Source: Candidatus Thorarchaeota archaeon
GTDB lineage: Archaea > Asgardarchaeota > Thorarchaeia > Thorarchaeales > Thorarchaeaceae
Assembly (NCBI GenBank): GCA_048882325.1
Contig: JBHLRS010000003.1
Coordinates: 64,001-128,000, forward strand
Direction of reading: 5' to 3'
DNA length: 64,000 nt
Shown here: positions 41,563 through 45,173 of the stretch, in pieces
Layout of the letters: each line of letters starts with the position of its first letter
Numbering within the stretch: position 1 is the first letter of the stretch
Position numbers and translations under genes: made by a program
The notes under the pieces: generated by a model
Seen by the model: only the letters and a program-made list of their open reading frames with translations
Databases searched by the model: none
What the model was told of the DNA's origin: nothing

Positions 41563-42702
41563 ATGGCTGAAGACGAGTTTCTTGGCGCAAAACCAATTGT
41601 CATCGACAATGGTACTGGTTTGAGCAAGAACGGTTACGCCGGCGAAGATCAGCCACGCAGCGTTTGGCCCACACTGATTGGTTACCCACGTTATGAGTCA
41701 ATCATGACTGACGTGGATCACTACACACGTGACTACTACATCGGTGAGGAAGCAATCAACCTCCGTGGTGTGCTCCGTCTGGTCTATCCGATCTCTCACG
41801 GAATCGTAGAAGATTGGGATGCTATTGAGAAAATATGGAGCTACACATTCTATAACGATCTCAAGGTGGACCCAAGCGAGAACCCGGTACTTCTTACTGA
41901 AGCACCATTTAACCCTAGAGAAAACAGAGAGCGCATGGCATCAGTCATGTTTGACAACTTCGGCGTTCCTGCCGTGTACGTTGCCACACAGGCTGTATTG
42001 TCACTATACGCATCCGGTCGAACCACTGGTCTGGTCATTGACTCAGGCGATGGTGTCACCCACATAGTACCAATCTATGAGGGCTTTTCAATCAACCACG
42101 CTATCCGAAGAATTGACCTTGCTGGTAGAGACATCACCGAGTATCTGCGCAGACTTCTCCGTCAGAGAGGCTACTCATTCGTGAGCGGTGCAGAGAAAGA
42201 GATCGTCAGAGATGTCAAGGAGAAGCTATGTTACGTAGCTCTCGATCCCGAGAGGGAGAGGACAGTCGCTGACAAGGCCGGTGTTGACAAGCCTTACATG
42301 CTACCAGACGGTGAGGTAATCACTGTTGGAGCAGAGAGGTTCCAGGCACCCGAGCTGTTCTTCAACCCAAGTGCCATTGGTCTAGATACAATGCCACTCG
42401 ACGACCACATTGTCGAGTCTATCAAGGCCTGTGACGTCGACTTGAGGCGTGATCTATACGCCAACGTCGTTCTGTCAGGCGGTTCAACAATGTTCCCAGG
42501 GCTCAAGGAGAGGCTCCACAAGGAGATCACCGAACTAGTCCCAGAGAACATCGAGGTCCGAATCATTGCTCCTCCAGAGAGACAGTATTCTGTCTGGATT
42601 GGTGGAAGCATTCTCGGCTCACTGAAGACCTTCCAGAAGATGTGGGTCTCCAAGAAGGAGTTCGAGGAAGTAGGACCTGAAGTGATACACCGCTGTATCT
42701 AG
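41563..42702 (+). CDS. Asgard actin
   Basis: [71 protein letters not shown]. Start set at ATG 41563. Confidence 0.97.
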
Positions 42703-42721
42703 AGTTCCCTAGTTTCCGAAG
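42669..42721 (+). repeat. Direct repeat copy 1 (actin 3' end)
   Basis: 46/53 identical to 45121-45173. Confidence 0.9.
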
Positions 42722-42742
42722 GTGGGCTGCAAGGCCCCCTTC
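42718..42742 (+). terminator. GC-rich hairpin with pyrimidine tail after actin
   Basis: GAAGG(T)GGGC-TGCAAG-GCCCCCTTC followed by TCTCTTTCTTATTT. Confidence 0.6.
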
Positions 42743-42753
42743 GTATCTCTTTC

Positions 42754-43260
42754 TTATTTCCGATATCTCTGTTGAATCTTGAAGATAGTAATAACAACGC
42801 AACCAATTCCCATTGAAACAAATCCGGTCAACATAACTTCAGGGAAAGGATGTAGGACTCGCACGCTCATTGTGATAGTATTGTTTCCTCCATCATCTGG
42901 TATTGCCACGACGCCATATTTTCCAGGCGGAAATTCAGTTATAGCCTGTCTGAAATAAGAGATTCCATGATATTCTAGAAGGGGATTTGTATTCATGATT
43001 GATTGTTCTTCAAGTAGCATGAAAGTATCATCAAGCGTGAGTAAGTAAAGCGAGAATTGCCTTGTTGCATTCCAGTTATCGTTTGCTTCCAGAAGGAAAG
43101 ACCCTCCTGAACCGAAGACATACCCAAAATAGACATCACTCTCAAGAGGTACTGGGGGCCCATAGACATGAATGGAAAAACCTGTGAATGAAATTGCTAT
43201 CAGTGAGAACCCAATGATTAGAAACAAGAATCCAATACGTTGTTCAATCCTCATCTTCAC
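42754..43260 (-). CDS. Hypothetical membrane protein
   Basis: N- and C-terminal TM helices around a soluble domain. Overlaps the permease stop. Confidence 0.7.
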   Translation of the reverse strand: MKMRIEQRIGFLFLIIGFSLIAISFTGFSIHVYGPPVPLESDVYFGYVFGSGGSFLLEANDNWNATRQFSLYLLTLDDTFMLLEEQSIMNTNPLLEYHGISYFRQAITEFPPGKYGVVAIPDDGGNNTITMSVRVLHPFPEVMLTGFVSMGIGCVVITIFKIQQRYRK

Positions 43261-44066
43261 ACCTCCGCTGATTTTAGAGCTCTGTAACTAAGAAAAAGCA
43301 TAGTTAAGCCGACAATGAAAGTCACAATGATAGAGAACATCACGTTGGAATACAGTTCCTGTATGTTCCCATAGACTCTCATATTCATGACCAAAATAAT
43401 TGGATTGATGAATGATGTAATTCCACTTGGAAAATCAGGAGTGGCAAGAAGTAGGGACAATCCATACCAGATTCCAATTCCTACAAGTGCTGATGGGAGC
43501 GTCTTTTTCAGAAAGACCGAGATTATGGTCATTACAGAAACCATCAGAATGATGTGTGCCCAGAATGCAAGTGATAATGCAAACAAGGCGGATATCGAAT
43601 AAACCCCAGGGATTGCTAGGTAAACTGTTAGAACTAAAGCCACAGTTGTGGTTACACCAATGATGGTTATTGGTATCAGTGTCTTGAAGAGAAGAAGCCG
43701 TCTACGTGGAATTGGATATGTTAGCATGGTCTGGAATATACCTTCTTCGAAACCTCTTGCTACATTATATGCGATTAGCAGAGGAACCAGAAAGGCAAGA
43801 ACTAAGGTGACACGATATGCTGACATACCAAAGACATAGAGTGCGTGTTCCTGTACGCGATCGAAAACGAACATCATGTTTGAATATGCAAATTCAGGTT
43901 CATTGGGCCAAGTCTGTATGATATCTGCATATCTCACGGCGAGGTCCAAAGACGAAGCCACTGAAACAAACACAACGATTGCAATGATACATTCAAGAAC
44001 TGGGAACCTATAGTTCACCTCGAATTCATACTCAAGTGATGCCCTGAGATTTTTTAACTCACTCAT
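43257..44066 (-). CDS. ABC-2 family permease
   Basis: A..FEEG....L.YPI.R..LLL.K motif, about 6 TM. Confidence 0.88.
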   Translation of the reverse strand: MSELKNLRASLEYEFEVNYRFPVLECIIAIVVFVSVASSLDLAVRYADIIQTWPNEPEFAYSNMMFVFDRVQEHALYVFGMSAYRVTLVLAFLVPLLIAYNVARGFEEGIFQTMLTYPIPRRRLLLFKTLIPITIIGVTTTVALVLTVYLAIPGVYSISALFALSLAFWAHIILMVSVMTIISVFLKKTLPSALVGIGIWYGLSLLLATPDFPSGITSFINPIILVMNMRVYGNIQELYSNVMFSIIVTFIVGLTMLFLSYRALKSAEV

Positions 44067-44982
44067 CTCTCATCACCTCTCTGAATGCATCCTCTAAGGA
44101 ATCTGCATTCTCGAATGCGTAAACTGTGATTCCAAGATCCTTTGCTATTCTTTGAACCTCAGCTTTACTAGCTTCAATAGAATCTGACGCGAAACCTGCA
44201 GTGATAGTGTTGGTGCCAACAACCTTTGGAAACTGTATTCCTTCAAGACTCTCTATTGCTCTGAGGAGCTCCCTTGCATTAGATGTGACGATTCTGAGAT
44301 GATCAGCTGTGTGTTTTGCAATTGTTTCTCTTGTTTCTCCACTTGAAACATGCTTTCCCCTTTTGATGAATGCAATTGAATGGCAGGACCTTTCCACCTC
44401 AGACATGATATGGGATGAGATAAAAAATGAAACTCCTTGTTCATCATACAATTCAGTTAAGATACTCACTATGTCATCTCTACCAATTACATCAAGATTT
44501 GCTGTGGGTTCATCCAAGAATACAATCTCTGGATTTCCAACTAGCGCATGAGCAATCCCTAACCTCTGATACATACCTGCTGAGTAAGTACCAATTCTTC
44601 TATCCGCTGCATCTGTAAGATTCACTAAATCAAGTAATTTCTCTGCTGGTTTTTTCTCCCGATAGAGTCTTCCAGCCATCTCAAGGAACTGTCTTCCTGT
44701 GATTGTTTTCGGGAGCGCTGGACGTTCATGAAGAACCCCAACCCTCGATCTAATCTCAAGAGAATCCTTTGTTACATTCAATCCTAGAACAGTTGCAGTT
44801 CCCGAGTCCGGTTTTAACAACCCTAATAGAATTCGAAGGAGCGTTGTTTTTCCTGCTCCATTCGGACCAATGATTCCTGTAATTCCTCTTGGTATTTCCA
44901 AATCTAGTCCATCTAGAGCCCTGACTGGGCCAAACGATTTGGTCAATCCAGTTATGCTTACCACTGTTTCTGATTGAACCAT
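44059..44982 (-). CDS. ABC transporter ATP-binding protein
   Basis: GPNGAGKT, YSAGMYQR, LDEPT, SSH. Confidence 0.94.
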   Translation of the reverse strand: MVQSETVVSITGLTKSFGPVRALDGLDLEIPRGITGIIGPNGAGKTTLLRILLGLLKPDSGTATVLGLNVTKDSLEIRSRVGVLHERPALPKTITGRQFLEMAGRLYREKKPAEKLLDLVNLTDAADRRIGTYSAGMYQRLGIAHALVGNPEIVFLDEPTANLDVIGRDDIVSILTELYDEQGVSFFISSHIMSEVERSCHSIAFIKRGKHVSSGETRETIAKHTADHLRIVTSNARELLRAIESLEGIQFPKVVGTNTITAGFASDSIEASKAEVQRIAKDLGITVYAFENADSLEDAFREVMRDE

Positions 44983-45120
44983 TGTAAACAGCTCATTGGT
45001 GAATTGTGAACGGAAGGTTCCTTCTCTAAAAACTCGGGGAACAATCTACTGATAGAATTGGAATACATTTATAGATTTCATGTAATCAAAGGAGTTTCTA
45101 TCAAGTTTTGGAATATTCCG

Positions 45121-45173
45121 AGTAGGATTCGAAGTGATACACTGCTGTGGCTAGAGTTTCCTAGTTTCCGAAG
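45121..45173 (+). repeat. Direct repeat copy 2 (degenerate actin 3' end)
   Basis: AGTAGGATTCGAAGTGATACACTGCTGTGGCTAGAGTTTCCTAGTTTCCGAAG. Confidence 0.9.

Follow-up and report, generated by a model that had tools for sequence, protein, structure and literature searches.

Copies of the actin 3′ end bound small gene cassettes downstream of actin in Thorarchaeaceae

Introduction

Why do the last codons of an actin gene, together with part of the untranslated sequence behind them, recur 2.4 kb downstream on the far side of three genes read from the opposite strand? The question is raised by a 64,000-nucleotide stretch of DNA, here called the window, from a Candidatus Thorarchaeota archaeon of the family Thorarchaeaceae (assembly GCA_048882325.1, contig JBHLRS010000003.1, forward-strand positions 64,001 to 128,000). 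A preliminary description of the window had read this layout as attL/attR-type site-specific integration at the conserved actin 3′ end, by a single islet that had since lost its integrase or been mobilised in trans. When we compared the locus with its counterparts in related genomes we found the second copy to be one decayed instance of a ~110-nt unit, here called R, which recurs in direct orientation downstream of actin in relatives, with varying genes between the copies. In our interpretation, to which we give about as much belief as doubt, the repeat is the mark of a single cassette within an array of gene cassettes that is driven by recombination, most likely by host homologous recombination, and has the actin 3′ end as its anchor.

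Results

The actin gene and its repeated 3′ end

The anchor gene, on the plus strand as open reading frame (ORF) 41488..42702, is a true actin, with a full-length match to the Pfam Actin family (PF00022, 1.2e-132, profile positions 5-407 of 410), and it is the only one found in its genome, where a search with the actin returned a single match. The protein is 95-99% identical throughout the genus, which is the one containing SMTZ1-45, AB_25, and OWC2. Because the alignment of relatives begins only at about residue 15-26, the actual start is probably the ATG at 41563, 25 codons inside the listed ORF. The repeat (42669-42721 and 45121-45173) is direct and ungapped with 46 of 53 positions identical (87%), its first copy being the last 34 nt of the actin frame, stop codon included, and 19 nt of the 3′ untranslated region (UTR). 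It is real: two sub-patterns each occurred exactly twice in the window against 0.00-0.01 occurrences expected from shuffles (0/100 shuffles gave a match), and the second copy was the sole other significant match to the actin 3′ end in the 3.6-Mb genome (E-value 1.3e-11).

When the actin 3′ ends of 20 relatives were aligned, the 3′ UTR past the stop codon proved conserved and was seen to lead into a strong hairpin and a T-rich tract, and the C-terminal actin peptide (15 residues) was identical in 20 of the 20 primary copies of the genus. R accordingly comprises the last 51 nt of actin (16 codons and the stop), the 3′ UTR, the terminator hairpin, and the T-tract. The primary unit of the window, R1 (42652..42759, plus strand), begins 16 codons ahead of the stop with AAGAAGGAG..., takes in the coding part (42652-42702), the 3′ UTR, and the hairpin (42717-42743), and ends with the T-rich tract at ~42759. 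The secondary unit, R2 (45121..45208, plus strand), has the 87% identity over 53 nt and retains the stop codon, and a profile of actin 3′ ends stretches it to 45208, where vestiges of the hairpin and T-tract are included; a further vestige is possible at 45088 (AAAGGAGTT) and would mean an indel. The hairpin and pyrimidine tract that had been described after each copy are thus present behind the first (-19 kcal/mol, z -3.7), but not behind the second, where the T-tract is degraded and the fold (-5.7 kcal/mol, z +0.35) is no better than those of shuffled sequences.

The left edge of R is sharp. More than 12 independent cassettes with unrelated DNA on the left side have AAGAARGAGTTCG as the point where similarity to actin sets in, 51 nt ahead of the last base of the stop codon, and more than 35 secondary copies have this short left edge in common; one copy, the third in genome G015, has ~20 nt of added homology on the left. 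On the right, homology stops after the T-tract. Single-sequence folds placed 27 of 27 primary copies at -14 to -20 kcal/mol, with a hairpin of 10-bp arms and a 4-7-nt loop whose stem occurs in two main variants, the arms differing by compensating changes. Secondary copies mostly retain a stable hairpin and T-tract (mean -15.8 kcal/mol), several have lost the hairpin, and some have poorly pairing stems resembling hybrids of the two variants, A and B (e.g., the fourth copy in G015). RNAalifold returned no structure for a MAFFT alignment of 53 copies, owing to a one-column misregister between the two UTR variants.

Between R1 and R2 lies the opposite-strand, three-gene ABC-2 cassette named in the preliminary description. 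Its operon runs on the minus strand from an ABC transporter ATPase (44059..44982; PF00005, 4e-29) through an ABC-2-type permease (43257..44066), for which the Pfam match is weak (PF12679, 2.8e-4, under the curated cut-off) and a 71%-identical homolog is named ABC-type permease by JGI, to a 168-residue protein with no family match (42754..43260), the stop codon of which falls within the R1 T-tract. The GC content of the cassette (0.40-0.42) is no different from that of its surroundings. Contigs assembled independently from four sequencing runs of two studies span R1, the ABC genes, R2, and the genes beyond without a break, so the layout is not an assembly artefact.

Arrays of R across the family

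Gene order is conserved genus-wide upstream of actin and not downstream. A scan of the 9-17 kb downstream of actin, and of other R-carrying contigs, gave 27 primary and at least 35 secondary copies of R, all direct repeats in the same orientation as actin, with successive copies starting 0.3-3.4 kb apart. Two or more copies follow actin in 19 of the 26 genus genomes that hold the locus; G015 has four on one contig, and the metagenome contigs L137 and L144 have eight or nine and six, respectively. Four genomes (G001, G002, G013, and G041) carry the primary R and no second copy in the 9-17 kb downstream. These are cargo-less alleles, and with the absence of the window's ABC cassette from the other 27 genus genomes they supply the empty sites expected in relatives of an insertion. 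Assemblies often break inside R or just past it. Of 19 genomes with usable downstream sequence from 15 other genera of the family, eight likewise had secondary copies, and these began at the same left edge; none was seen in one sister-family genome or in eight other Asgard genomes, for which mostly 1.5-kb flanks were at hand. The earlier proposal is borne out in treating the actin 3′ end as a place where recombination recurs and cargo varies, and it proves more general than proposed; what had been taken for a single islet is one cassette of a family-wide system of arrays.

The cassettes are small and varied. Intervals between R copies hold zero to four genes on either strand, many of them opposite to actin, and a Pfam scan of their products identified, besides the window's ABC transporter, a nitroreductase, DUF1801 and DUF998 proteins, an ArsR-type regulator with an S15 peptidase, a cytidine-deaminase/TPR protein, a 1038-residue HD/B12-binding/radical-SAM protein, and many proteins with no family match. 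The same cassettes recur at different positions. Family k13, present in seven genomes, is the first cassette in G009, G017, G018, and G021 and the second in G005 and G006, and in G020 it is flanked by R copies on contig C424, which carries no actin gene. The nitroreductase family k24, in four genomes, comes first in G006 and G016 and second in G022, such that G016 reads R1-k24 whereas G022 reads R1-x-R2-k24-R3 (94% nucleotide identity); the DUF998 family k2 and the families k5, k21, and k36 likewise change position between genomes.

For the ABC cassette we identified only two homologs, at ~70% protein identity. One is a cluster of ABC ATPase, permease, and 170-residue protein genes on contig JAEOUD010000384.1 of another metagenome-assembled genome, GCA_016839485.1 (locus L170), with 68% nucleotide identity over 2.1 kb, in which the 170-residue gene follows the permease as the 168-residue gene does in the window. 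A split DinB gene directly precedes it, and behind it come a GNAT gene and a gene with partial similarity to the zinc-ribbon gene of the window. No copy of R and no actin lies within 6 kb of this cluster, and no donor of the ABC cassette can therefore be named; its position beside DinB and GNAT genes, away from R and actin, indicates that the island genes travel together in another lineage.

Relatedness and mosaicism of R copies

Mean identity among R copies was 0.828 within genomes vs. 0.817 between genomes, a comparison in which neither concerted evolution nor gene conversion inside a genome was seen. The nearest relative of a secondary copy was in 21 of 24 cases an R in another genome, often the primary copy of that species, from which it follows that R copies travel between species, presumably with cargo. 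Local duplication and within-genome homogenisation were considered as sources of the secondary copies and rejected, as these do not resemble their own primary.

R copies are also mosaic. Contigs L137 and L161 are 99.7% identical across 5.2 kb and then diverge within an R hairpin; between L148 and L137 the left edge of R is the exact point at which identity jumps from ~70% to ~99%, and the hairpin alone holds a patch of differences; and between G016c263 and L167 the coding part of R differs, 21 nt of the UTR agree, and the hairpin variants differ. As the identity shifts lie at differing places, crossovers fall at several positions in R.

Search for an integrase or mobile carrier

No member of a recombinase family was identified by the Pfam scan among 20 cargo proteins of actin arrays or among 10 proteins from the other arrays described below, and the part of the preliminary description that concerned a lost integrase was not upheld. 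The window genome, which is 93% complete, gave no match to the tyrosine recombinase (PF00589), resolvase (PF00239), or SSV-type integrase (PF16795) families in searches in which the controls matched. PF00589 was absent from 20 of the 28 genus genomes, and all 14 control genomes matched it. The absence in the window genome and in the 20 genus genomes would cover the XerA-type chromosome resolvase as well, an enzyme present in most archaea. The 18 genus contigs that do bear PF00589 carry neither R nor a tRNA gene, and three R patterns gave 0 matches in IMG/VR viral contigs; the site was thus found on no contig of a virus or mobile genetic element, where the preliminary description had proposed to look for it. 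Nor was a complete element with its own recombinase present at the actin site in the 28 genus genomes, 20 family genomes of other genera, or 33 metagenome contigs.

Parallel arrays at other conserved genes

A self-comparison of the window genome (G000) identified two further arrays of this kind. In one (G000:C33:1-7500, locus L104) five copies of a ~125-nt unit are separated by genes for leucine-rich-repeat proteins and an esterase. This unit consists of the last ~60 nt of 23S rRNA and the trailer, and it contains the end of the Rfam LSU match in G014 and G012. It is found in 23 of the 28 genus genomes and multiplied in several, with six copies in G001 and, in G012 (C34, locus L134:3082-5136), three directly behind the 23S gene. 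In another array (G000:C20:1-2700, locus L105) the contig start truncates a tRNA gene, behind which its 3′ half occurs twice more (422-475 and 2655-2697), and the 2.2-kb interval between these extra copies holds an alkylmercury lyase (MerB) homolog and a 444-residue protein with no family match. No cargo family is common to the actin arrays and the 23S and tRNA arrays, which ties mobility to the repeat sequence.

Other repeats were also present in the genome. A ~85-nt unit occurs three times on G000:C87, where the copies are separated by a gene for a beta-lactamase-fold protein and one for a 225-residue protein, and twice on G000:C21 (2740-2820 and 8292-8344); Rfam returned no match for this unit or for R itself. 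Past the window end, on the same contig, the first ~30 codons and upstream region of a minus-strand gene for a 505-residue protein are duplicated (G000:C3:149621-149715 and 152472-152567), the copies lying 2.85 kb apart at 81% identity with three small ORFs between them, a 5′-end counterpart of the 3′-end arrays. The tRNA ‘repeats’ on C6 were rejected as an att array, being two different tRNA-Arg genes, and perfect 77-nt repeats 177 nt apart (C1:149480, C3:146202, C5:133766, C15:37404, and C23:35092) proved to be scaffolding artefacts, since the same 77-mer flanks both sides of a 100-N gap.

Genes around the array in the window

Beyond R2 lies an ORF of 199 codons (45179..45778, plus strand) with no family match and a start that is probably internal; its homolog in G005 is a cassette between the R1 and R2 of that genome (cluster c25/k27). 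The rest of the variable island (45781..48042) comes next and comprises a DinB-family gene (45781-46326, minus), a gene for a 315-residue GNAT protein (46409-47356, minus), and a second GNAT gene (47560-48042, plus), homologs of which occupy shuffled positions in relatives. The 315-residue GNAT gene sits between two R copies on the metagenome contig L144. As these apparently fixed neighbours of the window, the 315-residue GNAT, DinB, and DUF998-family genes, are found between R copies elsewhere, the island reaches to at least ~48 kb.

On the other side, divergent from actin, two minus-strand genes of 259 residues (40534-41313) and 231 residues (39826-40521), neither with a Pfam match, are syntenic with actin throughout the genus. 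The first also adjoins actin in three other Asgard genomes (G025, G036, and G037; loci L031, L034, and L038), at 23-27% identity.

Discussion

The answer that we favour for the window's repeat is homologous recombination between copies of R, because no integrase was found, the stretch of homology is long, the R copies are mosaic and horizontally related, crossovers are scattered, and cassettes are bound to their own type of repeat. The mechanism of the arrays is unproven, but it can be sketched. R-bounded DNA, in the form of a circle carrying a single R or of a linear fragment with R at both ends, would recombine with the R at the actin end. The outcome would be an intact actin gene, new cargo behind it, and a displaced R copy that, free of selection, would decay; R2 of the window would be such a displaced and decayed copy. 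Recombination between two direct copies would in turn delete cassettes. The host recombination machinery, with no dedicated integrase, would thereby act on R copies of the same genome as well as on DNA acquired from related species, and the uniform left edge would then have been inherited from one founding duplication in the ancestor of the Thorarchaeaceae. The data establish the arrays, with copies of the actin 3′ end as their joints; in the scheme itself the intermediate, whether circular or flanked by R, is inferred, as are the enzyme and the path by which DNA is transferred.

Several points weigh against homologous recombination and lend some probability, although distinctly less, to site-specific integration, which is the main and a serious rival. 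On this view each cassette would be a satellite with no integrase, or what is left of an integrative element, and its attP would imitate the actin 3′ end. Insertion and excision would be the work of a recombinase, tyrosine-type or novel, whose gene lies elsewhere (an unbinned plasmid or virus, or an unrecognised gene of the chromosome) and which would exchange strands in or near the hairpin. The anchors of the three kinds of array (actin terminator hairpin, T-arm half of tRNA, and 3′ end of 23S rRNA) each form a stem-loop at the 3′ end of a conserved gene, which is the kind of target that tyrosine integrases classically prefer, and the R hairpin has the shape of a recombinase core site, with two compensating arm variants and some stems that look like A/B hybrids. 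The direct repeats regenerate the target gene in the manner of attL and attR, as the preliminary description had recognised, and successive insertions appear to have pushed older, more decayed copies distally, as in the tycheposon islands discussed below. A sharp, common left edge is also expected from a single family of attP-bearing elements, while the origin of the founding duplication is left unexplained by homologous recombination. The three mapped identity shifts are anecdotal, and one of them, between L137 and L161, lies within the hairpin. In the contigs of the four runs over 41000-47000 we found no joint skipping 42722-45120 and no excised circle, although assembled contigs hide rare variants, and metagenome-assembled genomes often miss plasmids and viruses able to supply an integrase in trans. 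Yet no integrase is present in the annotated cassettes or on R-bearing contigs, nor is one detectable in 20 of the 28 genus genomes; R was not found in IMG/VR viral contigs with three patterns; identity shifts fall outside the hairpin too; and the loop sequences differ among R types, whereas tyrosine recombinases require matching overlap regions. The mosaic, horizontally shared R copies fit homologous recombination at least equally well.

Two further explanations carry much less weight. R copies might be retained as terminator or insulator modules for neighbouring genes, having arisen by local duplication rather than cassette mobility. Most secondary copies do keep a stable hairpin and T-tract, and the next R could terminate the transcription of plus-strand cargo. 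However, many cargo genes lie on the opposite strand, the copies carry 51 nt of actin coding sequence with no terminator role, several copies including R2 of the window have no hairpin, and, in a finding that largely refutes this explanation, secondary copies are nearer to the primary copies of other species than to their own; we consider it very unlikely. Least credible of all, to the point of being negligible, is that a full-length actin paralog decayed and left the second copy as its last trace, or that this copy is a chance match or an assembly artefact. Apart from the repeat itself, only the ~20 nt of extra left homology of the third R of G015 speaks for a paralog. Decayed full-length paralogs are ruled out by the common short left edge of the secondary copies and by the absence of further actin similarity upstream of R2, where an intact opposite-strand operon lies, so this alternative, which the preliminary description had named as fatal to its own proposal, fails. 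Misassembly, named there in the same way, fails too, as the independent assemblies bridge the region, and chance is countered by the E-value and the shuffles given above.

Partial tRNA repeats left by integrated elements are familiar from Sulfolobus chromosomes. In the tycheposon islands of Prochlorococcus, tandem integration at tRNA genes lets new elements push older ones inward, with partial tRNAs scattered along the island (bioRxiv 10.1101/2020.12.28.424599). The Thorarchaeaceae arrays resemble these islands in that direct repeats of a target 3′ end are scattered in a variable island beside a conserved gene, newer insertions adjoin the intact gene with older, decayed repeats further in, the cargo is of an accessory, niche type, and one array of the window genome lies at a tRNA 3′ half. 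They differ in their target, a protein-coding cytoskeleton gene and elsewhere the 3′ end of 23S rRNA, in their cassettes of mostly 0.3-3.4 kb and zero to four genes, and in the absence of an integrase, integrase fragment, or replication module from the scanned intervals of actin, 23S, and tRNA arrays, where tycheposon-type elements have a tRNA-specific tyrosine or serine recombinase and a replication module; most genomes, moreover, are without tyrosine recombinases.

Integrons and CALINs, i.e., clusters of attC sites with no integrase, have been reported in Archaea and are enriched in Asgard genomes (PMC9668308); the Thorarchaeaceae in the table of that study are two genomes of other genera (B65-G9 and MP8T-1) with two attCs each. 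Like these, the R arrays consist of small cassettes bounded by a hairpin-containing repeat and reshuffled between genomes, with no linked integrase. Unlike them, the repeat copies the 3′ end of a host gene rather than an attC and its hairpin derives from the actin terminator, no IntI is present (PF00589 is absent from the window genome), and the cargo lies in both orientations with no common promoter. An attC is an imperfect palindrome with the R″/R′ cores RYYYAAC...GTTRRRY, whereas R, as we read the sequences, has no GTTRRRY core: GTTTAAC occurs in one UTR variant only and has no GTTRRRY partner after the hairpin.

Integrative elements that target the 3′ ends of protein genes carry a replacement end, following the general logic of attP and attB. 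R shares with such elements the regenerated target, with the same C-terminal peptide in 20 of 20 primary copies, the direct repeats flanking the insert, and the empty sites in relatives, but among the scanned proteins no recombinase gene lies in or beside a cassette. In papers on Asgard mobile elements we found no description of an actin 3′-end site. What is unusual here is the target (actin and the 3′ end of 23S rRNA), the very small integrase-free cassettes, and the family-wide spread. We tentatively entertain the possibility that the Thorarchaeaceae own a dedicated gene-capture platform, an archaeal functional analogue of integrons, in which small accessory cassettes would enter and leave at ~110-nt units that are copies of highly conserved gene 3′ ends (actin, 23S rRNA, and a tRNA); the enzyme might be host recombination used in a programmed way or an unrecognised recombinase family.

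At a practical level, the repeats explain why many Thorarchaeota assemblies break right after actin and 23S rRNA. Gene flow is thought to have strongly shaped Asgard genomes, and few concrete routes are known. The locus beside actin, a hallmark eukaryote-like protein, is a family-wide docking site for accessory genes, among them those for transporters, a nitroreductase, a deaminase, a radical-SAM/HD protein, GNATs, and DinB. If a hidden recombinase drives the arrays, it would represent a new enzyme family with a long, well-defined target; if homologous recombination does, the arrays would offer a simple, testable model of how uncultured archaea swap genes between species via short conserved anchors.

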